A DNA stretch of 42,600 nt from an uncultured Candidatus Saccharibacteria bacterium. Its GTDB lineage: Bacteria; Patescibacteriota; Minisyncoccia; UBA6257; 2-01-FULL-56-20. The stretch covers positions 1 to 42,600 of the forward strand of contig CAZXZC010000004.1 of NCBI GenBank assembly GCA_964645125.1, given 5' to 3'. The translations under genes and the position numbers were made by a program. Positions 4,194 through 42,600 of this stretch are shown here, piece after piece (position 1 is the first letter of the stretch; each line of letters opens with the position of its first letter). The notes under the pieces were generated by a model, which saw only the letters and a list, made by a program, of their open reading frames with translations, searched no databases and was not told the origin of the DNA.

Positions 4194-4909
4194 AGATCCA
4201 TCATTTTGTGTATCCGTATACGGTTGTCGATTCTGTTGTTGTTATTTCTGACAGTGCTATTGTTCGCCAAATTGAACGGGTACTTAAACTTCTGCCTGGA
4301 GAGCATATTGCCCTTATTCATCCCAATGGTGGTAAAGTAGTGTGTGAGATTATTGCATTTGATCGTAAACATCTTACGTGTGCTGTTTTGCATACGGCGC
4401 CAGCTTCTTCTGTTGCTGGGGTTCATTTGTATTTGGCTGTTTTGAAAAAAGAACACTTTGAAGTTGCATGTCAGGGGGCAGTACAGGTGGGAGTATCTGC
4501 TATTACAGGCATGATTACTGACCGCACTATTAAAACAAATATTAATGAGTCGCGACTTACTAAGCTTATTCAAGAATCTGTTGAGCAATCAGAACAGACC
4601 CGTATTCCTTCATTTACTGGAATTATTTCCTTTTCCGATGCGGTGAGCCACGCTTGTTCTTCTGGTGCGCTTGTTTTGTTTTTTGATCCAACCGGGAGTA
4701 ATGTCTCGACAATTTCTGAAATCTCAAAAGATATTTGTGTATTTATTGGCCCTGAGGGTGGATGGAGTGAGCAAGAGCTAGTATTGATACGTACAATGCA
4801 AGAAGACTCAAGCGCCGTTTCTGTTGTGCGATGCGGTGACTCTGTGCTTCGCGCGGAGACTGCTGCGATTGTGGGCGTGTATGTTGCAAGGAGTAGATGC
4901 AAGAATTAA
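4190..4909 (+). CDS. rsmE: 16S rRNA (uracil1498-N3)-methyltransferase
   Basis: Starts with an ATGA overlap onto the upstream stop. C-terminal IGPEGGWS..E and LR.ETAA motifs. Confidence 0.88.
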   Translation: MKIHHFVYPYTVVDSVVVISDSAIVRQIERVLKLLPGEHIALIHPNGGKVVCEIIAFDRKHLTCAVLHTAPASSVAGVHLYLAVLKKEHFEVACQGAVQVGVSAITGMITDRTIKTNINESRLTKLIQESVEQSEQTRIPSFTGIISFSDAVSHACSSGALVLFFDPTGSNVSTISEISKDICVFIGPEGGWSEQELVLIRTMQEDSSAVSVVRCGDSVLRAETAAIVGVYVARSRCKN

Positions 4910-4985
4910 GAATAATGAAGTATGAATAAGGGTTTCTGCAATAATGCATTAAAACCTTAATTCTTTATTCGTTATTCTTTCTTCT
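4899..4985. repeat. AAGAAT/ATGAAT-word palindromic repeat with conserved ATGCATTAAAA loop (family 2)
   Basis: Arms aagaattaagaataatgaagtatgaataagggttt and aaaccttaattctttattcgttattctttc. Overlaps the rsmE stop codon. Confidence 0.8.
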
Positions 4986-4993
4986 CGGTTTTG

Positions 4994-5002
4994 TGGTATA
5001 AT
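4994..5002 (+). promoter_or_regulatory. Extended -10 promoter element TGgTATAAT
   Basis: Lies 31 nt upstream of the 5034 ATG. Confidence 0.55.
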
Positions 5003-5033
5003 CTTTCTACCGTCGTTTGTTTTATTTACCTCT

Positions 5034-5854: not shown

Positions 5855-5940
5855 ACCCACATACTTTGCTGCGGAGAGCGCTCCAAGGCCGCTAGGCCAG
5901 TCCTACTCTCCTTAGTCAAAGTATGTGGGTTTTATTGCAT
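5855..5940. repeat. Conserved-core hairpin element, copy B
   Basis: Stem acccacatactttg / caaagtatgtgggt. The core GAGCGCTCCAAGGCCGCTAGGCCAGTCCTACTC starts at 5876. The element begins 6 nt after the stop codon. Confidence 0.85.
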
Positions 5941-6746: not shown

Positions 6747-6835
6747 TTAATTAGTTAACGAATTGCGGATTATTATACACTGTGTGATTGAATTATTTTA
6801 ATTCGTTAATGCGTAATTTCTTAATTTTTTAATCC
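6747..6835. repeat. TTAACGAATTGCG-word palindromic repeat (family 3)
   Basis: TTAACGAATT (6764-6773) pairs with AATTCGTTAA (6800-6809). Homologous to 20841-20920. Confidence 0.75.
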
Positions 6836-6859
6836 AATCATTATGATATAATGATTGGC

Positions 6860-7533: not shown

Positions 7534-7540
7534 CGTAAAT

Positions 7541-7673
7541 TAGCCAATAGCCAGTAGGGTGTAGCCAATAAAACATCAGCCATTAGTATCCCTAGATTTG
7601 AGATCTGGGGATTTGGTTTTTATACATGCTTTTTTGTATTACACTATTGGCTATTCGCCACACCCTAAACCCT
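7541..7673. repeat. GCCAATAG/AGGGT-word palindromic repeat (family 1)
   Basis: Left arm tagccaatagccagtagggtgtagccaata; right arm actattggctattcgccacaccctaaaccct. An inner terminator-like hairpin ccctagat..atctgggg is followed by a T-run. Confidence 0.8.
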
Positions 7674-7680
7674 GTTTATT

Positions 7681-8505: not shown

Positions 8506-8599
8506 AGTGCATAGCTTACAGAGTATAGAAAATAGTAGAGAGTAAATAGCGTATAGGAAATGGTTATAGAATATAGTGGATAGAAAATAAAAAACAAAG

Positions 8600-8646
8600 A
8601 GCAAATGAAAAGTAAAAATCCCCTTGAGCGCGTTGCTCGGGGATTT
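8600..8646 (-). terminator. Intrinsic terminator (minus strand)
   Basis: AAATCCCC..GAGCgcgttGCTC..GGGGATTT followed on the minus strand by TTTTTACTTTTCATTT. Confidence 0.65.
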
Positions 8647-8726
8647 TAAAGAGGGTGCCATTATGCGTAGTCAAAAAAAACAATCTACCTTGTGTAAACG
8701 AGCGTGTTTCATAACTTCTTGCCTCC

Positions 8727-8766
8727 TTTTTAAAAAATACGGCAGCTCTAACTTTCAAGCTGCCGT
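8727..8766 (-). terminator. Intrinsic terminator (minus strand)
   Basis: ACGGCAGC-12 nt-GCTGCCGT followed on the minus strand by ATTTTTT. Confidence 0.65.
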
Positions 8767-9125
8767 TGACGAATATCCAACAAGAATATTGCGTGCCAAG
8801 ATGGGCACAAATATTCTTTTCTTTGCTTCAGTTTTTTACATTTGTAACCACCCCCTTTTTTTGTGAACTCCTTTTACAGTATTGTATTTTTTTTGCGGCG
8901 TAAAGTGGTTTGTTCTGTAAAAAAACGACCCGCGCTGGTGCTGGGTCGGTGTGATGGTATGAAAGTAAATAATGAATGTATCCAGACGTGACTGATTTTT
9001 GCCTAATACAAACTCGCGCGCGCCCATGGAGGGAATTTTAGGGTGCTGGGGAAGCGAGTTTTTTGAAATTTGCATGTATCTAACCGTTCAGTAACGCCTG
9101 GATCTGTGAACACAGTAGCAGGTTA

Positions 9126-9173
9126 TTTTAAAAAAGGAAATGGCGGCTCCGTGTAACATTTGTTAGAGCCGCC
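9126..9173 (-). terminator. Intrinsic terminator (minus strand)
   Basis: GGCGGCTC-16 nt-GAGCCGCC followed on the minus strand by ATTTCCTTTTTT. Confidence 0.7.
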
Positions 9174-9500
9174 ATGGTTGGTGAAGCGTGGGCTTCGTAG
9201 AAAATATTTGCGGGATAGCGGTATCCCTCCTTTTGAAGATTGAAGATTTTGAAACAACTGGATTGTTAATACTTTTTTTGCTCGTGCAGTAGCCCGGTGG
9301 GTGGCATGTGCTTGCGACATGGAGCTTGGGGTGCGTGACTTATTGTATTAACCTCCTTGGTTCACTTTATGGCATCATTATTTTTTGTGCAAGACCATTA
9401 ATTAGTAAATAGGGTAGAGGGTTTAGCCAATAGGGTAAATACAGAAAAATTTTTGGAAATAAAAAAATTTGCCAATGATGTAAGAAATTTAAAATCCTTG

Positions 9501-9549
9501 CAAGAAAGAATAGAAAAAGGACCCAGAAGCTCTGTGGCTTTGGGTCCTT
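9501..9549 (-). terminator. Intrinsic terminator (minus strand)
   Basis: AAGGACCCA-15 nt-TGGGTCCTT followed on the minus strand by TTTTCTATTCTTTC. Confidence 0.65.
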
Positions 9550-10078
9550 GGGGTGAAGCCTGCCGAAAGATACGGAGGGCTGTTGCGCATACAGCCACAA
9601 ATCCATTTGCTGGATCCGTCTGGCGAGTGGCAGGCTTCAAAGACGGAAGACTTACCGGTTATGGGAGCCTGTCGCAGTTGAGAAACTGCGAGATCGAAGA
9701 GTAGAAAAAGATGTACACTCTGCGACAGGCTCAGGGTTTTAGGGTTGCTACAAAAAATCTCGTTGTTTTTTCATGGCTGTAGCCTCCTTTTTTTGGGTTA
9801 ATGCCATGAGTCGTCTCTCTCAGCCACATAAAATAGGTGGCACGTCTCGAGAGTTTTTTTAAGAAAAAATCCATGCTTGGCCGTTCTTCGAGTTTTGGAT
9901 CTGATTGATGACCCGTTTCGAATACTTGGTTGGGGTGATTTTGTTCTTATGACTCCGTGTGCAGGCCTAATTAGAGTGCCCTGCACTACCTCGGTTTGGC
10001 GTGGCTAGCCAAAATCGTCGGCCTTTTTCATGGCCTCCTCCTTTCCGGTTTTTTTGTTATCAACGAACTGTAAGTGCC

Positions 10079-10106
10079 AGCATAGCAAGTTAAAAATATT
10101 TGTCAA
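10079..10106 (-). promoter_or_regulatory. Sigma70-like promoter firing leftward into island L
   Basis: On the minus strand: TTGACA, 16 nt, TATGCT. It is divergent from the tgt promoter. Confidence 0.6.
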
Positions 10107-10166
10107 GGGCTGTTAGTCGTGTATCGCAAATCGTAGAACGTGAATCGTGAAAAACCCTTGGTTTTA

Positions 10167-10195
10167 TTGCCATTTTTGAGGTTTTATGGCATAGT
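10167..10195 (+). promoter_or_regulatory. tgt promoter (TTGCCA-17 nt-TGgCATAGT)
   Basis: The -10 ends 12 nt before the ATG and there is no SD, so the leader is very short or absent. Confidence 0.6.
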
Positions 10196-10207
10196 AATGA
10201 TACGTGT

Positions 10208-11350
10208 ATGATTTCTTTTAAGGTTCAAAAACAGTCTAAGAAATCCGCAGCTCGCCTGGGGGTTCTTACGACTCCTCATGGGGAAGTTCAGACTCCATGC
10301 CTGGTGCCGGTGGCTACTCAGGCCACGGTGAAGGCATTGCCGCCTGATGTGGTAAAGGCTAAGACGAAGTCGAGCCTTTTGATATGCAATACCTTTCACC
10401 TACATTTAAAGCCAGGGGAGAAAACAGTGAAAAAACATGGGGGCTTGCATGAATTTATGCAGTGGGATGGGGCTTTAATGACGGATTCGGGGGGATTCCA
10501 GGTGTTTAGCCTGGGGTTTGGGCGAGACCTTTCGACGAATAAGGTTATAAAAAATGGAGCGAAGGTGCCTGAAGTTTTGCATGGTCGCCAACCACAACAC
10601 TTAAAGATTTCAGAAGAGGGGGTGTTGTTTCGTTCGCCGGTTGACGGGGCTCAGGTGTTTTTGGGGCCAAAAGAGTCGATAAAAATCCAGCAAGCATTGG
10701 GGGCTGACATTATTTATGCGTTTGATGAATGCCCGCCACCGTCAGCCAGTTATGAGTATGTAAAAAACTCGGTAGAGCGAACGCACCGGTGGCTTACGCG
10801 GTGTATTAAGGCAAAAACGAGCAAACAGGCATTGTATGGGATTGTGCAGGGTGGGCGTTATAAGGACTTGCGTGCGCTAAGCGCGAAGTTTGTGGCAGCA
10901 ACAGACGTCGATGGGTTTGGAATTGGGGGTGAGTTTGGGAATAGTAAAACAGATATGACTAAAATGCTCTCTGCGGTTATTCCGCATTTGCCAGCACATA
11001 AGCCTCGGCATTTGCTGGGGATTGGCCACCCGGAAGATATTATTCCGATTATTAAAAGCGGGGTGGATACGTTTGACTGTATTGTGCCGACGCATTACGC
11101 CCGGCACGGCACTGCCTTTACGAATCGAGGGCGTGTGACAATTGGGAATGCAAAGTTCAAAAATTCTTTAGAGCCGCTTGACCCTAAGTGTGATTGTGAA
11201 GTATGTGCTACGTATACGAAAAGTTATGTGCACCACTTGTTTAAGGCACATGAGATTACGGCCTTACAGTACCTTTCGCTCCATAACATTTACTTCTTTC
11301 AAACCTATATCGAACAGATAAGGAAAAAAATTCAAAAGGGATTGCTTTAA
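10208..11350 (+). CDS. tgt: Queuine tRNA-ribosyltransferase (tRNA-guanine transglycosylase)
   Basis: Contains TDSGGFQV and a CDC..C...SY.HHL zinc site. queA follows. Confidence 0.95.
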   Translation: MISFKVQKQSKKSAARLGVLTTPHGEVQTPCLVPVATQATVKALPPDVVKAKTKSSLLICNTFHLHLKPGEKTVKKHGGLHEFMQWDGALMTDSGGFQVFSLGFGRDLSTNKVIKNGAKVPEVLHGRQPQHLKISEEGVLFRSPVDGAQVFLGPKESIKIQQALGADIIYAFDECPPPSASYEYVKNSVERTHRWLTRCIKAKTSKQALYGIVQGGRYKDLRALSAKFVAATDVDGFGIGGEFGNSKTDMTKMLSAVIPHLPAHKPRHLLGIGHPEDIIPIIKSGVDTFDCIVPTHYARHGTAFTNRGRVTIGNAKFKNSLEPLDPKCDCEVCATYTKSYVHHLFKAHEITALQYLSLHNIYFFQTYIEQIRKKIQKGLL

Positions 11351-11417
11351 GAAAAATTTTTCTCGAGAGCGCTCAAGGGTGCTTGCCCAAGCTTTACTCT
11401 CTCGTAAATTTTTTCTT
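11349..11417. repeat. Conserved-core hairpin element, copy F (variant core GAGCGCTCAAGGGTGCTTGCCCAAGCTTTACTC)
   Basis: Stem aagaaaaatttttctcgagag / ctctctcgtaaattttttctt. The left arm contains the tgt stop codon. The inner mini-hairpin is changed compensatorily to GGGT-GCTT-GCCC. Confidence 0.8.
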
Positions 11418-11432
11418 AAATTTATTTTTATT

Positions 11433-12470
11433 ATGAATATTCAAGAATTCAAAAAACGATATTGGTATGAATTTCCGGCAGGGTTAATTGCGCAGCACCC
11501 GGCGCGGCCGCGGGATGCTGCGCGGCTTTTGGTGTGTGATAAAACGACTGGCGAAACGCGCGTTGATACGTTTTCTCATTTGGCACAGTACTTACCACCC
11601 AAATCAGTATTGGTTTTGAATGATACGAAAGTGTTGCCGGCGCGACTTACTTTACATAAAAAAACTGGTGGAGTTGTGGAGGCTTTGTATGTGCGCGATG
11701 TTTCTCCGTTTCGTGTGGCGGTGCTTTTGAACAAGGGTGTTGTGGTAGGCGATGAGCTTTTGTTTCGAAATAAACCAGTTTTTAAGGTTGTTGAGCGATT
11801 AGAGAAAGAATGGGTGTTGGAGCTGTTGGACGTCCATAAGCGACCGGTAGATGTGTGGATTGCGCATGGCACAGTTCCGTTGCCGCCATATATTAAACAT
11901 GCTTCAAAAAATAAGAAGCAAAATGAACGAGACTATCAAACGGTGTTTGGCAAACACCGGGGTTCTGTGGCTGCGCCAACAGCATCGTTGCACTTTACAA
12001 ACCGATTATTGCAGAAATTGCGAACCGCGGGGCATACGGTGTGTTTTGTGACGCTTCATGTGAACTTGGGTACGTTTGCGCCGGTTAGCGAGAGTCATTT
12101 GGTTAGCGGTACGCTGCACAGTGAGTATTTTTCGGTGCCTGCGGCAACTGCCAAAACTATTGCCGCTGCCAAGCAGAAGGGCCAAGCCATTATACCCGTG
12201 GGTACTACGGCGCTTCGCACCTTGGAGTCGGGATTTGATAAAAACGGCGTTTTGGTTACCCAGTCTGGGATGACGAATTTGTTTATTCAGGAGGGGTATG
12301 ATTTTAAAATTGCGACAGCGCTCATTACGAATTTTCATGTACCACAATCGAGTTTACTGGCTTTGGTGTGCACGTTTGCAGGGTACACGCAGGTAATGGA
12401 GTGGTATAGAAAAGCAATTACAGGTAAATTTCGATTATTTTCGTTCGGAGATGGGATGATGATTTTTTAA
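11433..12470 (+). CDS. queA: S-adenosylmethionine:tRNA ribosyltransferase-isomerase
   Basis: ATG 11433 lies downstream of repeat F. Contains LPPYI, GSVAAPTA.LHFT and TNFH.P.S.LL.L motifs. Confidence 0.93.
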   Translation: MNIQEFKKRYWYEFPAGLIAQHPARPRDAARLLVCDKTTGETRVDTFSHLAQYLPPKSVLVLNDTKVLPARLTLHKKTGGVVEALYVRDVSPFRVAVLLNKGVVVGDELLFRNKPVFKVVERLEKEWVLELLDVHKRPVDVWIAHGTVPLPPYIKHASKNKKQNERDYQTVFGKHRGSVAAPTASLHFTNRLLQKLRTAGHTVCFVTLHVNLGTFAPVSESHLVSGTLHSEYFSVPAATAKTIAAAKQKGQAIIPVGTTALRTLESGFDKNGVLVTQSGMTNLFIQEGYDFKIATALITNFHVPQSSLLALVCTFAGYTQVMEWYRKAITGKFRLFSFGDGMMIF

Positions 12471-12606
12471 GCAAGCCAATAGCCAAAAGGGTATGGGGTT
12501 TAGTGAAACTGCGAACAAACTGAAGTATCAATGCATTTGATTCTTCTTACTATTGGCCATTGGCTAAACCCTATTGGCTTGCTAAATGGCCACACCCTAC
12601 ACCCTC
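12471..12606. repeat. GCCAATAG-word palindromic repeat (family 1)
   Basis: GCAAGCCAATAG (12471-12482) pairs perfectly with CTATTGGCTTGC (12571-12582). Additional CTATTGGC words occur at 12550 and 12571. Confidence 0.85.
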
Positions 12607-12639
12607 TTGTATTTTTTATTTCATGTGGTATAGTATTTT

Positions 12640-12925
12640 TAGTTCGGCAATTCGTGTTTTTCTAGCTTTCAAGCGTACTTACCAGAATATATTGAGCGCT
12701 GGGAATGGCACTGATTTGCCCCATACTCTTATCGAAGCTGATTTATTTAGATCGCTATTTAAAGTTCTATATGAGCTTTTTGTTTTTGCCAGCGACCATG
12801 AGTTCTCCTCTCTCCCGGAGCAACGTTCTCAGATTCCCCTAGTTCGTTGTTCCTTTTTTCTCCGCTGTGTTTCACTGCTTTTCTCACAAGAAGGCCTTGA
12901 AACCAGCGGACTTTTTTTATTTTCA
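12640..12925 (+). ncRNA. Candidate ~280-nt standalone transcript
   Basis: TTGTAT-16 nt-TGgTATAGT promoter (about 12612-12639). Closing stem CCGCTG/CAGCGG followed by ACTTTTTTT at about 12861-12920. Contains a decayed copy of the GAGCGCT core at 12694. No SD-led ORF. Confidence 0.35.
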
Positions 12926-12956
12926 TACTTTATTTTTGTAGTGGTATGATATTTAC

Positions 12957-13430
12957 ATGATTACTATTGGAATGAATGCACCGGATTTTTCATTACCGGA
13001 TCAAGATGGGGCAGTTCACACTCTCAAAGAGTATAAAGGCAAGTGGTTACTCATTTATTTTTACCCAAAAGATAATACGCCGGGGTGTACAAAAGAGGCA
13101 TGCAGTTTGCGTGACTTATTTCCAAACTTTCGAAAACAGCATATGGAGGTTGTTGGGGTGAGTGCGGATAGTGTTGCATCGCATAAAAAATTTGCATTGG
13201 CCTACAACTTACCATTTACGCTGTTGGCTGATACGGAGCGTGATATGATACAGGCTTACGGGGTGTGGCAAAAAAAGAAGTTTATGGGCAAAGAATATAT
13301 GGGTATCGTGCGCAGTTCATTTTTAATAGACCCAAAAGGGAAAATCGCGAAAGTGTATGAAAAAGTGAAACCGGAGTTGCATGGGAAAGAAGTGGAAAAG
13401 GACTTACAGGGTCTAGCCAATGGCCAATAG
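12957..13430 (+). CDS. bcp: Thioredoxin-dependent peroxiredoxin Bcp
   Basis: Contains FYPKDNTPGCT.EAC. TGgTATGAT at 12942-12950 ends 6 nt before the ATG, implying a leaderless mRNA. Confidence 0.93.
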   Translation: MITIGMNAPDFSLPDQDGAVHTLKEYKGKWLLIYFYPKDNTPGCTKEACSLRDLFPNFRKQHMEVVGVSADSVASHKKFALAYNLPFTLLADTERDMIQAYGVWQKKKFMGKEYMGIVRSSFLIDPKGKIAKVYEKVKPELHGKEVEKDLQGLANGQ

Positions 13431-13492
13431 GGTGTAGTAAGCAATGAAAAATGTTTCTTTGATTTCACTATTGGCTAAACCCTATTTGGCTA
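13411..13492. repeat. GCCAATAG-word palindromic repeat (family 1) overlapping the bcp 3' end
   Basis: ctagccaatggccaatag encodes the last residues LANGQ plus the TAG stop. The right arm is ctattggctaaaccctatttggcta. Confidence 0.8.
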
Positions 13493-13505: not shown

Positions 13506-14339
13506 ATGAAGCCATTAATTGGTGGGCATGTGTCAGCAGCGGGTGGGGCGTTTAAGGCATTTGGGAATGCTGCCACTATTGGTGCATCTGCAATTCAAAT
13601 ATTTGGTGCCTCCCCCCAGTCGTGGCGGACTAAATTGCCTGATGCGGCGGACGCGGCAAAATTTCAGGCTGCGTGGAAGGCGAGTGAGGTGAAGGCTGTG
13701 TATTTACATGCAGCATACCTCGTAAATTTGGCTACTGAAAATGATGAACTCTATGAAAAATCGATTACGAATTTGAGTGAGCATTTGGCTATTGCCAAAG
13801 CACTTGGTGCGAATGGACTTATTTTCCATATTGGTTCAGGCGAGAACATGAAGCGAGTAGTTGCGGGCATGAAGCAGACGCTTAAAAACGTGCCTGGCAC
13901 GACGCAACTTATTATTGAAAACAGCGCGGCTGGCGGGAAAAAGGTGGGTGGGAAGCCTGAAGATATTGGGGCGATTATGAATTCGGTTAAGTCTCCTCGA
14001 GTGAAGGTGTGCTTGGATACGGCGCATATTTTTGAGGCAGGGGAGATTGAAAGCTACACACAGCCCAACATTAAAAAATTATTTGATCGAATTGAAGCAT
14101 CTATTGGAGTGGAGAACTTAGTGGCCATGCATGTGAATGATTCGAAAACTCCGTTTAACTCGCACCATGACCGACATGAAAATATTGGGCAGGGGCATAT
14201 TGGCTTGGACGGGTTTAAAAACTTGGCGAAAGAAAAGCGAACGCACCATGTGGCATGGTTGTTGGAGGTGCCGGGGATGGAAGGCAACGGACCAGATAAG
14301 GAGAATGTGGATATTTTGAAGAAACTCTTTGTTGGTTGA
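13506..14339 (+). CDS. nfo: Endonuclease IV (deoxyribonuclease IV)
   Basis: Contains the H..YL.NL, FH.GS, CLDT.H.F and LE.P motif series. TATACT at 13493-13498 lies 7 nt before the ATG. Confidence 0.93.
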   Translation: MKPLIGGHVSAAGGAFKAFGNAATIGASAIQIFGASPQSWRTKLPDAADAAKFQAAWKASEVKAVYLHAAYLVNLATENDELYEKSITNLSEHLAIAKALGANGLIFHIGSGENMKRVVAGMKQTLKNVPGTTQLIIENSAAGGKKVGGKPEDIGAIMNSVKSPRVKVCLDTAHIFEAGEIESYTQPNIKKLFDRIEASIGVENLVAMHVNDSKTPFNSHHDRHENIGQGHIGLDGFKNLAKEKRTHHVAWLLEVPGMEGNGPDKENVDILKKLFVG

Positions 14340-14416
14340 GACAATAATACCCTTGTCATAGAGCGCTCCAAGGCCGCTTGGCCGGTCTTACTCTAAGCCA
14401 AGGGTATTATTGTCTC
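14338..14416. repeat. Conserved-core hairpin element, copy C
   Basis: Perfect 18-bp stem GAGACAATAATACCCTTG / CAAGGGTATTATTGTCTC. The left arm includes the last two bases of the nfo stop codon. The core GAGCGCTCCAAGGCCGCTTGGCCGGTCTTACTC starts at 14361. Confidence 0.9.
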
Positions 14417-15440: not shown

Positions 15441-15584
15441 ATGATGACAACATCGAATCTTGTGCGTGGTGCGCCCATTATTAAATACCCGGCTGGATCC
15501 TTTCAATCCCAATGTCCGGGCGAGAGTGGGTATGGCTGTGGCGAAGGTGTCCCGTACCGAGTTGGTGGGTGCTGCTTGAACTGA
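15441..15584 (+). CDS. Candidate 47-aa Cys-rich micro-protein (family member X)
   Basis: GGGAG, 4 nt, ATG. Product is MMTTSNLVRGAPIIKYPAGSFQSQCPGESGYGCGEGVPYRVGGCCLN. The substitution pattern against its paralogues is synonymous. Frame +2 remains open to 15649. Confidence 0.5.
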   Translation: MMTTSNLVRGAPIIKYPAGSFQSQCPGESGYGCGEGVPYRVGGCCLN

Positions 15585-15673
15585 TCACGCCTGTTGGCAT
15601 CGGTCTAGGCACGCCCCCTTGTTTTTGGTGCTTCGCTTGCCGTAAGTGAAGTTGGTTTAAACCCTGTTTACCC

Positions 15674-15717
15674 CCCCCATAGAAGACGTATATTCTTTTA
15701 TGGGGGCTTTCTTTTTT
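15674..15717 (+). terminator. Intrinsic terminator
   Basis: CCCCCATAGAAG-9 nt-CTTTTATGGGGG followed by CTTTCTTTTTT. Confidence 0.75.
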
Positions 15718-16052
15718 GATTTGATTTTCATGTTTTTTTTGCTAGGATTTTATTGCGGTTGCATTGAAATTTGGTTACTCAGAACAAAAAGGGCAGCGGC
15801 ATGTAGTTATTAAGGCTGCTTCACGTATCCTTTATGATTTGTCCTTCGTGGCATTTCAGCTGGGTAATCTGGAGCTGTTTCCTGTGAAGGCATGAACGCG
15901 CTTCTTTGCCTGGGGACCGCTTCTATCCTGTAATTTCTTGTGACTGTTTCCAGGCATCGCCTGATGTCTTTTGTGTAACTATAGATTTGGAACTCTTTTT
16001 TGTTGGTTAGAAAGAGTAATGTGTTGTTGATTTTTCAATGAATGTTTCTCCT

Positions 16053-16090
16053 GGCCACGTTTGATAACCGACCGTGGCCTTTTTATTTAT
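16053..16090 (+). terminator. Intrinsic terminator closing island R
   Basis: GGCCACG-13 nt-CGTGGCC followed by TTTTTATTT. Confidence 0.7.
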
Positions 16091-16099
16091 ATTTTTTCT

Positions 16100-16321
16100 A
16101 TGCGTATTGAAGTTGTGGTAAAGCCAAAAGCAAAAAAGACGGTCATTGAGCAAACGGGAGACGCTTCATTTTTGGTTTCAGTAACGGAGCCACCGCACGA
16201 TAATGAGGCGAATTTTGCTGTTATGGATGTATTGAGCACACATTTCGCTATACCGCTTTCACGGATTCGATTGATTGGCGGTAAAACTTCACGGCACAAA
16301 TTTTTTGATATACAACTGTAG
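16100..16321 (+). CDS. DUF167 (YggU) family protein
   Basis: Contains MRIEVVVKPKAKK...V.EPP.DNEAN..V...L....IP.S.I.L..GKTSR.K. Confidence 0.85.
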   Translation: MRIEVVVKPKAKKTVIEQTGDASFLVSVTEPPHDNEANFAVMDVLSTHFAIPLSRIRLIGGKTSRHKFFDIQL

Positions 16322-16324
16322 GCA

Positions 16325-17089
16325 ATGCATGACATTCAAAAACAAATTGAGGTGATTATTCGAGATAAGTACGATGGTACTTCACCAACTCAAGAAGAGC
16401 TTGCTGTAGATATTACTCGGCTTATGGACGGTGAGCCGATTGATTATGTTATTGGGTGGAAGCCTTTTTTGAATATGAAGATTGATCTTTCTTACAAACC
16501 ACTGATTCCCCGGGTTGAAACGGAATACTGGGTGGATAGCGCGTTGGAAGATATAAAGCGACGTTTTGGTGATAGTACTATGCGAGTTTTGGATTTGTTT
16601 TGTGGTTCGGGGTGTATTGGTTTGGCTGCGCTGTCGCGACTGTCGAATGCGTCGGTTGTTTTTGCAGATAGTGACGAAAGAATGGGCGAGCAGGTAGCGC
16701 GGAGCGCTACTATAAATGGCATAGATACTTTGCGATTTTCATTTATGACCTCAGATATTTTTTCGAATATTTCAGGTACATATGATGTTGTATTCGCAAA
16801 TCCGCCGTATATTCCTGTTTCACGAAAAGAACTGCTTGACGCGTCGGTTGTACGATTTGAGCCGCATAGTGCATTGTTTGCTGAAGACGGTGGACTGTTT
16901 TTTATAAAAAAGTTTTTCATGGAGTTACCGTATTATTTGAGTAAAGAGGGTGTTTGTTTTTTGGAGTATGATACTGGTCAAGAAGCGGCGATTGAAGCAT
17001 TCGTGCAAGCTCATACTCCGTTTACGACGGAATTTTTTAACGATCAGTATGGGAAGTATCGGTGGGGAAGGATCAAATACAGCCAATAG
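16325..17089 (+). CDS. prmC: Release factor glutamine N5-methyltransferase PrmC/HemK
   Basis: Contains PLIPR.ETE, LDLFCGSGCIG and NPPYIP motifs. The stop TAG lies inside a GCCAATAG word. Confidence 0.9.
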   Translation: MHDIQKQIEVIIRDKYDGTSPTQEELAVDITRLMDGEPIDYVIGWKPFLNMKIDLSYKPLIPRVETEYWVDSALEDIKRRFGDSTMRVLDLFCGSGCIGLAALSRLSNASVVFADSDERMGEQVARSATINGIDTLRFSFMTSDIFSNISGTYDVVFANPPYIPVSRKELLDASVVRFEPHSALFAEDGGLFFIKKFFMELPYYLSKEGVCFLEYDTGQEAAIEAFVQAHTPFTTEFFNDQYGKYRWGRIKYSQ

Positions 17090-17205
17090 GGTATAGCCAT
17101 CCGCCGGCTGGCGGAGCCAATAGTTTTAAACAAATACATAGATTCCGGCTCGGCGGCCGGAATGACAGAAGAGTTGCTGGCTATTGGCTCAACCCTAAAC
17201 CCTAG
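17081..17205. repeat. GCCAATAG-word palindromic repeat (family 1) with inner GC hairpins
   Basis: GCCAATAG at 17082 and 17116; CTATTGGC at 17181. Inner hairpins CCGCCggctGGCGG and TTCCGGCtcggcGCCGGAA. Confidence 0.8.
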
Positions 17206-17215
17206 TTTTTCCACA

Positions 17216-17244
17216 TTGACATTACTGTGCAAGTCTGTTATCAT
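17216..17244 (+). promoter_or_regulatory. Sigma70 promoter TTGACA-17 nt-TATCAT for the RRM gene
   Basis: Consensus -35 and 17-nt spacer. Predicts a 5' UTR of about 118 nt. Confidence 0.65.
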
Positions 17245-17367
17245 TTCTTCTGTTGAGGATTCTTCCTTTGTGCTTGATGATCGGCCCTTTTCGTGGTCGT
17301 AGGCAAGTGGCAGGGTTTAAGAAGGTGTCGATCTTTCAGCATTTATAATTTCAATCATATTTCTAAT

Positions 17368-17643
17368 ATGAAGCTTTACGTAGGGAACCTTCCCTGGAGC
17401 ACCACGAATGACATTTTGCGCGACTTGTTCTCGCAAAAGGGCATGGTAACTTCAGCTACCGTTCTCATGGGCCCTGATGGCCGTTCACGTGGCTTTGGTT
17501 TTGTAGAGTTCGGCAACGACTCAGAAGCCCAGGCAGCGATTGACGCCTTCAATGGCTACGAGCTTGATGGTCGTAAATTGACCGTCAACGAGGCTCGACC
17601 AAAGACCGAAGGCGGTATGGGTCGTGGCCCTCGCTTCCGCTAA
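17368..17643 (+). CDS. RRM (RNP-1) type RNA-binding protein
   Basis: Contains KLYVGNL (RNP-2) and RGFGFVEF (RNP-1), with a Gly/Arg tail. Confidence 0.93.
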   Translation: MKLYVGNLPWSTTNDILRDLFSQKGMVTSATVLMGPDGRSRGFGFVEFGNDSEAQAAIDAFNGYELDGRKLTVNEARPKTEGGMGRGPRFR

Positions 17644-17664
17644 ATCTAGCGGTGCGCATATATT

Positions 17665-17714
17665 CCCCTTGGCTGTACTTTTCGGGTAAGCCGAAAATAG
17701 AGCCGAGGGGTTTT
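17665..17714 (+). terminator. Intrinsic terminator
   Basis: CCCCTTGGCT...AGCCGAGGGG with inner TTTTCGG/CCGAAAA, followed by TTTT. Confidence 0.75.
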
Positions 17715-17761
17715 GCGTATTTATAATGAGGTTTTCGATTATAGGCTTTAGAATACTTTTT

Positions 17762-19549
17762 ATGCAAAACAACTCTCTTCGCAATATTGCAATCATCGCT
17801 CACGTTGACCATGGGAAAACTACTTTGGTTGACGCACTTCTGAAACAATCAGATATTTTTAAATTAAAGACGGGTCAGAGCGATCAATTAATGATGGATT
17901 CCAATGAATTGGAACGAGAGCGTGGTATTACTATTTTTTCAAAAAATGCCTCAGTCATGTACCATGGTGTGAAAATCAATATTGTTGATACACCAGGACA
18001 TGCTGATTTCGGTGGAGAGGTGGAGCGTATTATGCGCATGGTGGATGGCGCTATTTTGCTCGTTGATGCGAAAGAAGGTCCGATGCCACAAACAAAATTT
18101 GTGCTCAAAAAGGCGATTCAAGCAGGGCACAAAATTATTTTAGTAATTAATAAGATTGATAAGCCAGGCGCGCGGTGTGACTGGGTGTTAAATCGTACTT
18201 TTGATTTGTTCGTGGAGCTTGGCGCCTCTGACGTGCAGGCTGATTTTCCGGTTATTTATGCGGCTGGCGTGTTGGGTAAAGCAGGAACAGAAAATAATTT
18301 AGAGGCAATGGAAAATATTTTGCCATTGGTTGAAAATATCATTACCCATATTCCCGCCCCAAGTGCTGATGTTGATGCACCGTTACAAATGCTGACGGTC
18401 AATTTGGCATACGATAATTACAAGGGCAAGATTGCGATCGGCCGCTTGTATGCTGGTTCAATAAAAAAGAACCGCGAAGTTGCGCATATTAACCGCGCTG
18501 GGGTGGTAAAAAAAGCGACCATTACCAATGTGATGTTGTTTGAAGGCATGAATAGGGTTGACGTTGATGAAGCAAATGCAGGTGATATCGTGGCAGTTTC
18601 TGGCATTGGCGATATTTCAATCGGTGAAACGATTGCAGATGTGACAAACCCAGTTGCCTTAGCAACCATTGCCATTGAAGAGCCGACAGTGAAGATGAAT
18701 TTTTCGGTGAATAATTCACCCTTTGCAGGTCGCGAAGGACAGTATGTTACATCGCGTAATATTGCCGATCGTTTACAAAAAGAACTTGAAACAGATGTGG
18801 CGCTTCGAGTTGATGCAACCGATACCACTGATACGTGGACAGTATCGGGGCGTGGAGAATTACACCTTTCCATTTTGATTGAAAAGATGCGTCGTGAGGG
18901 ATTTGAGCTTCAAGTATCTCGGCCGCAAGTGATTTTAAAAGAAGAGAATGGTAAAAAAATGGAACCAGTTGAGCGAGTTACCATCGAAGTTCCTGAGGCA
19001 TTTATTGGTGGGGTCATTGAAGATTTAGGAAAACGCAAAGGTACTATGGCAGATATGCGCGTAGAAAACGCTACTGGATTTTTAGAATTTCTCGTGCCAA
19101 CCCGTGGACTTATTGGGTATCGGAATCAGTTTACGACAAACTCTAAGGGGCAGGGTATTATGAATACATTGTTTGAAGGCTATGAGGCATATAAGGGTGA
19201 CTTTGAAGCCGCACCTCATGGGTCTTTGGTTACGACGGAATCGGGTACGACCCGCACGTATGGCTTGTTGGCCGCAGAAGAGCGCGGGGAACTTTTTGTA
19301 GGGCCCGGTGTTGAGGTGTATGAAGGCATGGTGGTGGGCCAGAATGCAAAAGCCATGGATTTGTGGGTAAATGTATGCCGTGAAAAGCAGCTGAGCAACA
19401 TGCGCGCGAAATCTGATGGCGGTATGGAATTTTTGAAGGTGCCTCGAGCAATGACACTTGAAGATGCAATTGAATACATTGGTGATGATGAACTTGTAGA
19501 AGTAACTCCAGAGTCAATTCGCATTCGCAAAGTAAAGTTGAAGCAGTAG
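17762..19549 (+). CDS. typA: Translational GTPase TypA/BipA
   Basis: Contains [23 protein letters not shown] and NKID motifs. Length and domain order match BipA. Confidence 0.96.
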
Positions 19550-19662
19550 GGTAAGCCAATAGAAAAACTAGCCGCTAGGGTTTAGGGTATAGCGAATAGT
19601 TAAATCAAAAACTTTATGTCTTTGTCTGACTATACCGCAAACCCTATTGGCCATACCCTTGG
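19547..19662. repeat. GCCAATAG/AGGGT-word palindromic repeat (family 1)
   Basis: Left arm tagggtaagccaatag...ctagggtttagggtatagcgaatag; right arm actataccgcaaaccctattggccataccc. It shares a 24-mer, inverted, with 23461-23484. Confidence 0.8.
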
Positions 19663-19685
19663 CATTCTTGTATTCTTATAAAACT

Positions 19686-20306
19686 ATGGTGGTAACGAAG
19701 AAGTTTACCAAGGAGGTTAAAGACAAGCTAAGAAAAGGGGCTGTGGGGGTTATCCCAACTGATACGTTGTATGGCATTGTTGCAAATGCCTTGCACGAAC
19801 ATTCGGTGGAGCGAGTGTATAAGGCGCGCAAGCGTACGCCCACGAAGCCAATGATCATCTTGCTGCCCGGGATGTCGTATTTGAAAAAATTCGGTGTTTT
19901 TTTGTCGCCGCAGCTTACTCGTATTGTAAAGCGATTTTGGCCAGGCAAAATTAGCATTATTTTCCCGGTGCCGCGAGGGTCTTTTTCGTATTTGCATCGG
20001 GGCCGAAACAGCTTGGCATTTCGGGTGCCGGATAACCCGCGTATATTAAAAGTTTTGCAGCGTACGGGGCCGTTGGTAGCCCCCAGCGCGAACGTAGAGG
20101 GTTCAAAACCAGCGGCGACTGTTAAGGAGGCGTTTGATTATTTTGATGATGCAATTGATTTTTATGTTGATTCGGGTCGGCTCTACGGGAAGCCATCGAC
20201 GCTTATTTCATTTCCAAGCGATCATGAGGTGGTAGTTTTGCGCGAGGGTTCGATACCGGCAAAAACCATTCAAAAAGTGGCGGGATTTGATCGGGTCGTC
20301 AAGTAA
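19686..20306 (+). CDS. tsaC: L-threonylcarbamoyladenylate synthase (YrdC/Sua5 family)
   Basis: Contains G.IPTDTLYG and LVAPSAN..G..P motifs. Confidence 0.9.
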   Translation: MVVTKKFTKEVKDKLRKGAVGVIPTDTLYGIVANALHEHSVERVYKARKRTPTKPMIILLPGMSYLKKFGVFLSPQLTRIVKRFWPGKISIIFPVPRGSFSYLHRGRNSLAFRVPDNPRILKVLQRTGPLVAPSANVEGSKPAATVKEAFDYFDDAIDFYVDSGRLYGKPSTLISFPSDHEVVVLREGSIPAKTIQKVAGFDRVVK

Positions 20307-20362
20307 TATTTCTCCTGGAGCGCTCCGGGCCGCTAGGCCAAGTCTTACGCCAGGAGAAATAT
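20306..20362. repeat. Conserved-core hairpin element, copy D
   Basis: Stem ATATTTCTCCTGG / CCAGGAGAAATAT starts at the last base of the stop codon. The core is GAGCGCTCCGGGCCGCTAGGCCAAGTCTTACGC. Confidence 0.88.
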
Positions 20363-20840: not shown

Positions 20841-20920
20841 ATTATGCGATTAATCAATTAATGAATTGCGCATTAGGACATACACTTTTAATTCGTTAAT
20901 CCGCAATATATTAATTTGTT
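20841..20920. repeat. TTAATGAATTGCG-word palindromic repeat (family 3)
   Basis: ttttaattcgttaatccgcaatatattaat is homologous to 6797-6826. The left arm is attaatgaattgcgcatta. Confidence 0.75.
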
Positions 20921-20962
20921 CATTCATACAACATTACCTGCGTAATGTTGTATTATTAAGCT

Positions 20963-22991: not shown

Positions 22992-23450
22992 ATGTCTATT
23001 TTTGCTGTAAAATCTCGTGCTGTTGCTTTGCCAGAGTGGTTTTCTTTAGCGTTTTCTGGAGTTGCGCTTCTGGGTATTTTTGACGCGCTTTTTCTTACTA
23101 TTCACTATTACTCAGGGACTCCGGTGCCGTGTAGTGTAACTTCGGGATGTGAAACAGTATTAACAAGTCAGTACGCAGTATGGTTTGGCATTCCACTGGC
23201 ACTGATTGGTGTGGCGTATTATCTCACGCATTTTATTCTTATGACGGCAGTGTATATGCGTCAAAGCTACTCCATTTTTATCGCGGTAGTGATTCTTTCC
23301 AGCTTGGGGTTTGCTGCATCGGTAGCGTTTGTGGGGTTGCAAGTTTTTGTTATTCAGGCATTATGCGCATACTGTTTGTTGTCAGCTTTTCTTTCAACAA
23401 TACTATTTGGACTTTCGGTGTATGGGGTTTTTCGATACCAAATCAAGTAA
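22992..23450 (+). CDS. Vitamin K epoxide reductase (VKOR) family membrane protein
   Basis: Loop cysteines CSVTSGC and active site CAYC. Four TM helices. Confidence 0.85.
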   Translation: MSIFAVKSRAVALPEWFSLAFSGVALLGIFDALFLTIHYYSGTPVPCSVTSGCETVLTSQYAVWFGIPLALIGVAYYLTHFILMTAVYMRQSYSIFIAVVILSSLGFAASVAFVGLQVFVIQALCAYCLLSAFLSTILFGLSVYGVFRYQIK

Positions 23451-23527
23451 CTAGGGCGCAGGGTATAGTCAGACAAAAGCATAAATTTTGCCTTAACTAC
23501 TGGCTATTAACTTAACCCTATTGCCCG
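23451..23527. repeat. AGGGT/CTATTG-word repeat (family 1, degenerate)
   Basis: Contains ctagggcgcagggtatagtcagacaaaagcata...ctggctattaacttaaccctattgccc. Confidence 0.65.
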
Positions 23528-23597
23528 TTACTGGTCTTGACGCATAGTGTATACTGGTAAGTAAGAAAGGTTAAAAGTCACATTTTATTTATTTTTT

Positions 23598-32482: not shown

Positions 32483-32516
32483 GCCACTAGGGTATAGCCA
32501 ATGGCCAATAGTAAGC
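32483..32516. repeat. GCCAATAG-word repeat, single arm (family 1)
   Basis: tagccaatggccaatagtaagcaat is nearly identical to 13414-13445. Confidence 0.75.
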
Positions 32517-32552
32517 AATTTAAATACAAGAATAACGATCCGTCAGCTGGCG

Positions 32553-32625
32553 GAAAGAATTATGAATTAAGGTTTCCGCGTAATGCATTAAAAAACCCTT
32601 ATTCTTTATTCTCCATTCTTAATTC
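32553..32625. repeat. AAGAAT/ATGAAT-word palindromic repeat (family 2), abutting the holB ATG
   Basis: Loop ccgcgtaATGCATTAAAAAA. Arms gaaagaattatgaattaaggttt and acccttattctttattctccattcttaattc. Confidence 0.8.
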
Positions 32626-33465: not shown

Positions 33466-33470
33466 GCAGG

Positions 33471-33500
33471 ATTTAGGGTTTAGTAGCCAATAGCTAATAC
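33471..33500. repeat. AGGGTTTAG/GCCAATAG-word repeat, single arm (family 1)
   Basis: Sequence atttagggtttagtagccaatagctaatac. Confidence 0.7.
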
Positions 33501-35839: not shown

Positions 35840-35957
35840 AAACAATTCTTACTCCTTTCGCTTCTAATGCGCGTGAGATTCGTGTTGATTGTCAAAATCA
35901 AACTCTACTTAGGGTAATAAAAAAACGTGCTTTTGCCAAATTACAGAAAAATACATG

Positions 35958-36026
35958 AACTAAGAATTGAGAATAATGAATAAAGGTTCCTGCATTAAAA
36001 ACCTTAATTCTTACTTCTTTATTCTA
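35958..36026. repeat. AAGAAT/ATGAAT-word palindromic repeat (family 2)
   Basis: Left arm aactaagaattgagaataatgaataaaggtt, loop cctgcattaaaa, right arm aaccttaattcttacttctttattctatt. Overlaps the ABC-F stop codon. Confidence 0.8.
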
Positions 36027-37986: not shown

Positions 37987-38039
37987 CAGTACTACCAGAG
38001 ATTCCTCGGCAAGCTTCGCAATAGCAGAGGGATTTTTTT

Positions 38040-38104
38040 CTATTGACCATTGGCTTGTCCTGAGCTTGTCGAAGGGCTAAACCAAACCCTATTGGCTCTA
38101 TTTT
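38040..38104. repeat. CTATTGGC-word repeat (family 1)
   Basis: Contains ctattgaccattggc ... ggctaaaccaaaccctattggctctatttt. Confidence 0.7.
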
Positions 38105-39844: not shown

Positions 39845-39875
39845 AGAATTAGAATCTGCGACGTTAAATTTTTAA

Positions 39876-39946
39876 AGCTATTCTATTTTATGAAGAGCGC
39901 TCCGGGGCCGCTAGGCCAGTCTTACGCTTCATACAATAGAATAGCT
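39876..39946. repeat. Conserved-core hairpin element, copy E
   Basis: 20-bp stem AGCTATTCTATTTTATGAAG / CTTCATACAATAGAATAGCT with one mismatch. The core GAGCGCTCCGGGGCCGCTAGGCCAGTCTTACGC has the same + orientation although the flanking genes are on the minus strand. Confidence 0.88.
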
Positions 39947-40012
39947 TTGTGTGTATATTTTCTTTATTTTATATGATTTGACGATAAATTCAAAAAGGTA
40001 GGAGGAATGAAA

Positions 40013-42464: not shown

Positions 42465-42493
42465 TGCGGGATCGTCTAATGGTAGGACTCCGC
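42465..42493 (+). pseudogene. Duplicated 5' half of tRNA-Gln (29 nt identical to 42529-42557)
   Basis: tgcgggatcgtctaatggtaggactccgc is repeated exactly. No anticodon loop, T-arm or 3' acceptor strand follows. Confidence 0.8.
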
Positions 42494-42528
42494 TGTTTTT
42501 ATAAATTGGAAATATTAGTTTCCACCGC

Positions 42529-42599
42529 TGCGGGATCGTCTAATGGTAGGACTCCGCCCTTTGGAGGCGGCTATCTTGGTTCGAATCCAGGTCCCGCAG
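42529..42599 (+). tRNA. tRNA-Gln (anticodon UUG)
   Basis: Acceptor TGCGGGA/TCCCGCA (U1-A72), D-arm GTCT/GGAC, anticodon stem CCGCC/GGCGG with loop CTTTGGA, T-arm CTTGG-TTCGAAT-CCAGG, discriminator G. Confidence 0.9.
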
Positions 42600-42600
42600 C

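Follow-up and report, generated by a model that had tools for sequence, protein, structure and literature searches.

The stretch analyzed here, referred to as the window, comprises 42,600 nt of contig CAZXZC010000004.1 from an uncultured bacterium of the Patescibacteria, or candidate phyla radiation (CPR). It carries ordinary housekeeping genes, among them mutY, queA, bcp, prmC, typA, mreB and holB, and intergenic DNA makes up 19% of its length, the coding share being 81%. Within the spacers lies the subject of the present work, a set of short elements built from tandem seven-base units. At six loci an arm of such units is followed by a non-repetitive core and by the reverse complement of the arm, so as to form a hairpin of 80-135 nt. 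All counts given for the window refer to this one 42.6-kb stretch of the genome. The best named homologues of the Bcp protein come from metagenome-assembled genomes (MAGs) of Pacebacteria, Parcubacteria, Ryanbacteria and the "Patescibacteria group", and the window sequence is present in activated-sludge and river metagenomes. The standard bacterial code applies, since the stop codons in the window are TAA (28), TAG (10) and TGA (6). At gathering thresholds, Rfam recognized only a tRNA-Gln in the window.

Seven-base units and hairpin elements in the spacers

The elements are marked by the word GCCAATAG/CTATTGGC, which a first-pass annotation of the sequence had counted 16 times. Exact search returned 17 copies, 10 on the plus strand and 7 on the minus strand; all 16 counted previously are real, and one more at position 367 had been missed. 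In 100 dinucleotide-preserving shuffles the expectation was 1.46 copies and the maximum 4, none of the shuffles attaining 17, which bears out the over-representation claimed earlier. It can be observed that 16 of the 17 copies are intergenic or lie on a stop codon (those of bcp, 13428-13430, and prmC, 17087-17089, are overlapped). The earlier statement that every copy does so fails at position 367 only, within the open reading frame (ORF) 35-676. With a single copy of 17 in coding DNA, the word is far from equally frequent inside genes, and given the intergenic share of the window its confinement to spacers is far from chance. A maximal-order Markov model predicts 10.7 copies where 17 are observed, a modest excess within the window that is weak only because the component 7-mers are themselves enriched. 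A scan allowing one mismatch was too noisy, with 485 matches in the window versus 522 in shuffles.

The word GCCAATAG is the joint between adjacent seven-base units (TAGCCAA and the next TAG) and no signal by itself. The units, with TAG in phase, are of the types TAGCCAA, TGGCCAA, TAGGGTN (for example TAGGGTT) and TAGTNAN, and one copy of the word is surrounded by TAGCCAA TAGCCAG TAGGGTG TAGCCAA. Base identity at lags of 7, 14 and 21 peaks in intergenic DNA only, coding DNA showing a period of 3. There are 15 segments with a lag of 7, of which 13 are intergenic, versus 3-7, mostly non-intergenic, for lags 5, 6 and 8-11. There are 19 instances of TAG-N4-TAG and 16 of CTA-N4-CTA, versus 2-6 for most other spacings between 4 and 12 (CTA at spacing 12: 10). 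When an in-register chain was defined as at least two units within one mismatch of TAGCCAA or TAGGGTN, 16 such arrays were found, versus 0.47 in shuffles (maximum 3), all of them in spacers or on stop codons. As a sequence pattern only, TAG recurs with a 7-nt period in 13 chains of the window, and of 58 units, 44 have T before AG, the rest having A, C or G there. A typical arm holds 2-5 units (21-35 nt), and one array reaches about 12. The order within arms is stereotyped: one or two TAGGGTN units are outermost, TAGCCAA or TGGCCAA comes next and TAGTNAN is innermost. The units are degenerate, unit order varies and the flanks of the 17 word copies differ; the sole internal palindrome within arms is TGGCCA. 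Tandem Repeats Finder misses the main arrays because neighboring units differ in word type, and it flagged an AAGAATT-type family.

Long palindromes had been reported downstream of a series of genes, and those next to the ytxH-like gene, queA, bcp, prmC, typA and VKOR are confirmed (extents 7534-7680, 12468-12617, 13404-13492, 17078-17212, 19545-19665 and 23449-23530, respectively). Behind mreB, holB and the minus-strand ABC exporter gene, for which palindromes had likewise been reported, only the gene-proximal arm is present, without an inverted partner of the same family; mutY, too, is followed by a single arm. In predicted RNA folds of the six elements the arms are paired, with free energies between -24 and -49 kcal/mol and z-scores between -1.8 and -4.3. 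For example, the right arm of the queA element pairs with the left (-44.7 kcal/mol, z -3.06), and a T-run at 12607-12617 comes next. The cores often hold a GC-rich stem-loop of their own with a T-rich tail, which is terminator-like (e.g. 7588-7612). The elements occupy the spacer from a stop codon to the promoter or start codon of the gene that follows. In the ytxH element, the right arm stops 6 nt short of the mutY start codon, while that of the prmC element is followed by TTTTT and then by a strong promoter-like site (17216-17244). In the array at 8512-8587, which has no inverted partner, the phase of TAG is kept and the other four bases vary. All features are collected in Table 1.

Longer blocks are common to several loci, as had also been proposed. 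The sequence TAGCCAATGGCCAATAG lies at 12550 (minus strand), 13414 and 32495, and a single 7-nt unit is all that distinguishes the copy at 13414 from that at 32495. Moreover, a 28-nt block at 19609-19636 recurs inverted at 23462-23489 with 89% complementarity, and a stretch of about 90 nt (19560-19650), which includes a 22-nt non-repeat core, matches 23445-23535 in reverse complement at 79% identity.

The arm adjoining the 3' end of the upstream gene is TAG-sense for that gene in 11 of 11 loci. Three genes, bcp, prmC and typA, terminate on a TAG of the array. The typA stop is the TAG of the first unit, and the last five codons of bcp (LANGQ), together with its TAG stop, are encoded by the array, the Bcp tail being merely 2 residues longer than in the closest homologue. 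As a side observation, mutY and nfo, which lie directly behind a heptamer arm, are without a Shine-Dalgarno sequence, and small minus-strand ORFs have strong ones.

Table 1. Positions of heptamer arms, cores and other repeat families in the window and, where stated, in the nearest relative
Feature	Positions	Strand	Units and remarks
ytxH-like element, left arm	7541..7568	+	TAGCCAA TAGCCAG TAGGGTG TAGCCAA
ytxH-like element, unique core	7588..7622	+	11-bp stem-loop, then T-rich tail; intrinsic-terminator-like
ytxH-like element, right arm	7640..7674	-	CAGGGTT TAGGGTG TGGCGAA TAGCCAA TAGTGTA; z -4.32
mutY array	8512..8587	+	11-12 heptamers directly past mutY stop; TAGCTTA CAGAGTA TAGAAAA TAGTAGA ...
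Single arm in long spacer	9403..9437	+	TAGTAAA TAGGGTA GAGGGTT TAGCCAA TAGGGTA
queA element, left arm (TAG-sense)	12473..12500	+	AAGCCAA TAGCCAA AAGGGTA TGGGGTT; 2 nt past queA stop
queA element, right arm	12546..12606	-	TAGGGTT TAGCCAA TGGCCAA TAGTAAG, AAGCCAA, outer GAGGGTG TAGGGTG
bcp element, left arm	13407..13441	+	CAGGGTC TAGCCAA TGGCCAA TAGGGTG TAGTAAG; overlaps bcp end
bcp element, right arm	13464..13484	-	TAGGGTT TAGCCAA TAGTGAA; 21 nt before nfo start
prmC element, left arm	17080..17123	+	CAGCCAA TAGGGTA TAGCCAT, small CCGCCGGCTGGCGG hairpin, second AGCCAATAG; overlaps prmC stop
prmC element, right arm	17177..17204	-	TAGGGTT TAGGGTT GAGCCAA TAGCCAG; z -3.57
typA element, left arm	19547..19603	+	TAGGGTA AGCCAAT AG ... 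TAGCCGC TAGGGTT TAGGGTA TAGCGAA TAGTTAA
typA element, core and right arm	19609..19660		Core 19609-19636, non-repetitive; right arm 19640-19660 (-)
VKOR element	23452..23520		Inverted copy of typA element; z -2.58
mreB single arm	32488..32515	+	TAGGGTA TAGCCAA TGGCCAA TAGTAAG
holB single arm	33467..33497	+	CAGGATT TAGGGTT ... TAGCCAA TAGCTAA
ABC exporter arrays, two, TAG-sense	38034..38098	-	GAGCCAA TAGGGTT ...; AAGCCAA TGGTCAA TAG; past minus-strand gene
AAGAATT-type family, same architecture	4897..4990	+	AAGAATT AAGAATA ATGAAGT ... / CTTAATT CTTTATT CGTTATT; z -5.64
GAGCGCTCC-core family, window copies	1639-1689, 5867-5917, 11360-11400, 14338-14416, 20307-20361, 39874-39948	+
GAGCGCTCC-core family, copies in nearest relative (L140)	8800-8840, 11419-11460

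Occurrence in relatives and in other organisms

Syntenic loci of related genomes, whose coding DNA is about 66-78% identical to the window, were retrieved via MreB and Bcp. The word GCCAATAG is missing from 5 of the 6 loci: no copy is present in L133-L139 (about 75 kb, partly redundant) and two are present in L140 (20 kb). The mreB-holB spacer measures 148 nt here versus 37 or 0 nt in L133-L139 (reported range 0-37), where it is without arrays, and the holB-frr spacer measures 83 nt versus 24-38 nt, again without heptamer arrays. The VKOR-glutaredoxin spacer is plain in both L133 and L140, with no counterpart of the VKOR element, and the spacer past prmC is plain in L140, the prmC element being missing there. 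L140 is the nearest relative (Bcp identity 84%) and carries elements at two orthologous sites. At ytxH-mutY, the right arm is nearly identical to that of the window and the core is swapped for different hairpins. At typA-tsaC, the element can be aligned over its full length at 77%, and its arms pair (z -4.0) although their word types come in a different order. The typA element is ancestral, since the nearest relative has it too, with its hairpin fold retained. Furthermore, the excess of TAG-N4-TAG is found in the window and in L140 but not in four other Patescibacteria loci. From this presence and absence, the conserved sites and the 79% inverted duplicate, the family appears to be lineage-specific and to gain copies by duplication into new spacers, some copies persisting for long with their arms and pairing. 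As an observation of another kind, L139 holds a repeat of its own of about 60 nt in two spacers (2389-2460 and 10210-10290), reading AACCTAAACCTGC.TGCTAG.CTTC.CTAAAG.TACGGCTTAGTAAAACCGG.AGGCAGGG, and it seems that each lineage carries its own set of intergenic repeats.

At strain level, the Logan contigs across the bcp and typA elements represent several strains; they contain substitutions with no gaps (0 in each of four records), and no 7-nt insertions or deletions were seen in them. It seems, then, that the short arrays are not undergoing slippage now.

Similar elements were also encountered elsewhere. A scan of JGI metagenomes with the composite AGGGTNTAGCCAATGGCCAATAG returned 12 short contigs (L121-L132) from one different organism, which has about 50% GC and no DNA similarity to the window. 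These contigs hold at least 10 near-identical copies of about 100 nt, sharing both arms and a 30-nt core, and most of them encode ribosomal proteins (L16, L14, S8, L18, L24, S3, L22 and others), the names having been read from ORF translations and not from database matches; a 57-aa fragment of S3 gave no named match in a protein search. The elements lie in successive spacers, in the order stop codon, TAG arm, core, CTA arm, a few nucleotides and ATG, so that nearly every spacer of the ribosomal-protein operon is filled. One copy folds at z -4.8, and the base of its stem is where the stop codon of the preceding gene and the start codon of the following one come to lie.

When genomes, one for each species, were scanned with TAGCCAATRGCCAATAG, at least 119 loci were obtained. 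Among the matches listed are Gemmatimonadota, Acidobacteriota, Bacteroidota, Chloroflexota, Verrucomicrobiota, Planctomycetota and several CPR groups, as well as Vibrionaceae, Psychrobacter and one cyanobacterium. Longer arrays predominate in the listed loci, some consisting of (AGCCAAT)n alone and others including related units; inverted pairs occur in several. A test for antisense ORFs on arrays of other phyla met long spurious open frames in the GC-rich genomes. Within the at least 119 loci listed, 260 arrays have a period of 7 versus 1-25 for periods 5, 6, 8 and 9. In two reports (PMC4679880, PMC4692102), published work is summarized according to which heptamers are the most abundant long simple repeats in prokaryotes, in intergenic position, and the 260 arrays fit this heptamer excess. 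In five Gemmatimonadales MAGs (L047, L056, L065, L077 and L095), AGCCAAT inverted pairs have the TTGGCTA arm ahead of the TAGCCAA arm, an arrangement opposite to that of the window; what these pairs share with the window is thus hairpin formation and not arm order. A literature search found no paper on the AGCCAAT word or on such elements in Patescibacteria.

Nature of the elements and competing explanations

With moderate confidence, the elements are regarded as a small, non-autonomous family of hairpin repeats with heptanucleotide-repeat arms in a CPR host, resembling miniature inverted-repeat transposable elements (MITEs) and REPINs, the hairpin-forming doublets of repetitive extragenic palindromic (REP) sequences. 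The data above demonstrate that the arms are built of 7-nt units, that the elements are confined to spacers, that inverted arms pair, that dispersed copies have cores in common and can differ by a single unit, that orthologous sites may be filled or empty, that some copies persist for long and that array TAGs supply stop codons. Features of the MITE type are found in the inverted arms, the length of 80-135 nt, the dispersed copies sharing internal sequence and the empty orthologous sites. In such a family, copies would multiply by passing from spacer to spacer, and units would now and then be gained or lost in 7-nt steps. The elements would be tolerated in part because 7 is not a multiple of 3, so that translation entering from the gene would meet a stop in all three frames within three units, or 21 nt, while pairing of the arms would loop the insert out of the transcript. 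On the mRNA, an element could act as a stem-loop in the 3' untranslated region (UTR) or between cistrons, protecting the 3' end or reinforcing a terminator, and not as a sequence-specific signal; its role is probably at most that of such a 3'-UTR or intercistronic stem-loop.

Several known systems share part of this anatomy. REPs and REPINs, and MITEs such as Correia, ERIC and RUP, are likewise about 100 nt long, extragenic and dispersed, with terminal inverted arms (PMC3116915, PMC3184786). The likeness extends to the hairpin, the placement in 3' UTRs or between cistrons and the presence or absence at orthologous sites. The arms here differ in being direct heptamers, not palindromic REPs or terminal inverted repeats derived from an insertion sequence (IS). 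The cyanobacterial short tandemly repeated repetitive (STRR) sequences and other prokaryotic heptamer simple sequence repeats (SSRs) are, in the summaries of Mazel 1990 and Mrazek 2007 given by two articles (PMC4679880, PMC4692102), likewise 7-nt tandem repeats, strictly intergenic, with several degenerate types intermixed. Unlike STRR sequences, the arrays in the window have only 2-5 units, with two or three fixed word types in stereotyped order, and pair with one another as arms around the unique core of a composite element in a Patescibacteria host; unlike both STRR sequences and long SSRs, they keep a constant unit number among strains in the bcp and typA contigs. The STRR unit TTGGTCA and the unit TTGGCTA differ by a swap of two adjacent bases. 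In Xanthomonas, inverted pairs of heptamer arrays have been reported (PMC4692102). The TAACTGA repeats of marine Beggiatoaceae, cyanobacteria and Bacteroidetes are also stop-containing intergenic heptamers that adjoin start codons and occur in ribosomal-protein operons, and MacGregor noted that their forward orientation, which stops translation in each frame, is tolerated only at gene ends (PMC4679880). They consist of another word, lack inverted pairs and predicted folding, and lie mainly upstream of starts, in which they are unlike the present elements.

A number of points weigh against a mobile hairpin family and should be noted together. No transposase, REP-associated tyrosine transposase (RAYT) or other mobilizing enzyme, nor any IS, was seen in the window and the related loci. 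No obvious target-site duplication was detected in the flanks, the orthologous empty sites being about 25% diverged. The orientation rule, which holds in every locus, and the retention of TAG phase at 8512-8587 while four positions vary are not predicted by a neutral selfish element. Moreover, some elements have kept their arms and pairing ever since the nearest relative diverged, and in a CPR genome, streamlined as it is, such persistence could instead indicate function. The restriction of the window counts to a single stretch counts on the same side.

The first alternative is a functional cis-acting RNA module. The UAG-phased 5' arm would then be a putative site for an XAG-reading oligomeric protein (HutP/TRAP-like) or an RNA recognition motif (RRM) protein, whose binding would compete with the hairpin and control termination, processing or translational coupling at many junctions. 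It would account for the TAG phase kept at 8512-8587 and among the word types of the window and L140 while other positions vary, for the TAG-sense arm facing the upstream gene, and for the orthologous ytxH-mutY element, in which arms and pairing are kept and the core is replaced. HutP/TRAP sites consist of at least three XAG triplets, HutP reading UAG plus 4 spacer nt, a 7-nt period, in the 5' flank of a terminator stem (PMC2425495). The resemblance is one of sequence only, and dozens of sites here stand against one operon leader there. An RRM gene lies at 17293-17643, and within the tested stretch 16300-20300 the contigs of sludge metatranscriptomes cover it alone (17276-17674), for which reason it is probably highly expressed. 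However, there is no HutP or TRAP homologue among the window proteins, the second arm is complementary (CUA), unlike the hut terminator with its second direct XAG site, relatives are without elements at the same junctions, and the orientation rule was possibly inherited from a single founder element. The RNA module is accordingly put forward only tentatively, and we consider it rather unlikely. A more specific proposal, in which the phased TAG/UAG heptamers would be a selected signal read by an oligomeric HutP-like protein that sets termination, processing or stop-start coupling at many gene junctions, every spacer of the ribosomal-protein operon in the second organism among them, is judged improbable. 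If it were true, the AGCCAAT arrays of many phyla would point to a widespread, undescribed heptamer-reading or heptamer-writing activity, and a protein reading phased TAG would constitute a new genome-wide post-transcriptional system in an uncultured phylum.

The arrays might, alternatively, be pure by-products of replication slippage that arose independently in each spacer, with neither dispersal nor function. The over-representation of heptamer repeats that prokaryotic intergenic DNA shows in general (PMC4679880, PMC4692102) agrees with this, as do the (AGCCAAT)n arrays in the at least 119 listed loci across many phyla, with their preponderance of period 7, and the two window copies (13414 and 32495) that are one unit apart. 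Slippage accounts in this way for the heptamer vocabulary but not for arms that come as matched inverted pairs, nor for copies that have non-repetitive cores in common. In addition, unit order is fixed across copies, the arrays are short with mixed word types, and unit number is constant in the strain-level contigs across the bcp and typA elements. As a complete explanation, slippage is unlikely.

REP/REPIN elements mobilized by a RAYT (an IS200/IS605-type Y1 transposase) had been named earlier as an alternative origin. Part of this stands: the elements are dispersed extragenic hairpin repeats, closer in kind to REPs than to uptake signals, and over-represented inverted doublets forming hairpins of about 100 nt correspond to REPIN architecture (PMC3116915). 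The arms, though, are direct heptamer repeats with no palindromic REP, no conserved 5' GT(A/G)G head is present (T, A, G or C precedes AG), and the spacing from arm to arm is variable. Neither the window ORFs nor the Pfam domains annotated in related loci totaling about 140 kb include a RAYT/Y1 transposase. True RAYT-driven REPINs are thus highly doubtful. CPR bacteria commonly encode competence-type DNA-uptake machinery. The DNA-uptake reading, in which the word would bias transformation to self DNA as in Neisseria (DNA uptake sequence, DUS) and Pasteurellaceae (uptake signal sequence, USS), has in its favor an over-represented short word with inverted pairs at terminator-like positions, as those systems sometimes have, and was nevertheless rejected with next to no weight remaining, because it fails on core constancy (DUS and USS own a fixed 9-12-mer, and here there is none and the flanks vary), on coding-region frequency (DUS and USS are frequent in genes, versus 1 of 17 copies here) and on conservation among relatives (DUS and USS are family-wide, and the word is missing from 5 of 6 related loci), while the same arrays occur in many unrelated phyla and no competence gene is encoded in the 42.6-kb window.

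Returning to the MITE/REPIN-like family, heptamer repeats and hairpin repeats are each known, and what is new is the use of the former as arms of the latter in a CPR genome. The elements join two phenomena that have been treated separately, the unexplained intergenic excess of heptamers and hairpin repeats of the REP/MITE type. Repeats of about 100 nt in about a dozen spacers within 42 kb are unexpected for the small, tightly packed genomes of Patescibacteria. In practical terms, gene calling is affected since the elements supply the stop codons of real genes, contigs in Logan assemblies of public runs end at or close to repeats, these among them, and the elements are handy as strain and lineage markers.

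Other repeats and features of the window

The AAGAATT-type family has the same architecture, with arms of 7-nt period around a conserved loop, and further copies at 32545-32625 and 35951-36031 bring it to three. Another repeat family has the conserved core GAGCGCTCC(A/G)(A/G)GGCCGCTAGGCCAGTCTTAC(G/T)C enclosed by outer inverted repeats that reach 26 nt and are specific to each locus. Its inner stem shows paired variation (GGCC/GGCC, GGGC/GCCC and GGGT/GCCC), all 6 window copies have plus-strand orientation, even between minus-strand genes, and two copies are kept at orthologous sites in the nearest relative. It may be a structured hairpin element and perhaps a better REP candidate than the heptamer elements; it has no Rfam match, and Logan contigs break at its copies. 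For the GAGCGCTC family, RNAalifold did not recover the structure read by hand because the outer stems are non-homologous between copies, and when one heptamer element and one GAGCGCTC element were compared with Rfam under permissive settings, the hairpin matches were all below threshold and due to chance. An AT-rich block, TTTTAATTCGTTAATNCGNAAT..TTAATT, occurs at 6796-6836 and 20886-20926 with 83% identity, and a resembling sequence lies in the bcp-nfo spacer of the relative (L140, 10520-10560).

Two long stretches without a called gene, 8600-10207 and 15479-16324, display several minus-strand signatures of a ribosome-binding site plus ATG and many terminator-like hairpins. Signatures of the form CAT..CCTCCTTTTT are located at 8710, about 9780 and about 10030, with similar ones at 1898 and 14416, and it is likely that several small minus-strand ORFs of less than 80 aa are present in these stretches. 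In the nearest relative (L140), a similar stretch of 866 nt lies past mutY. Extended -10 boxes (TGTGGTATGAT, TGTGGTATAGT and TGTGGTATAAT) were noted at 12922-12956, 12620-12640 and 4990-5005; the first lies only a few nucleotides ahead of the bcp ATG, which suggests a leaderless transcript. The RRM gene has a near-consensus promoter (TTGACA, 17 nt, TG-TATCAT; 17216-17674). Finally, a 34-nt segment at 42465-42498, which is 94% identical to the 5' part of the intact tRNA-Gln(TTG) gene (42529-42600) and lies 64 nt upstream of it, may be the remnant of a duplication or of an integration site.

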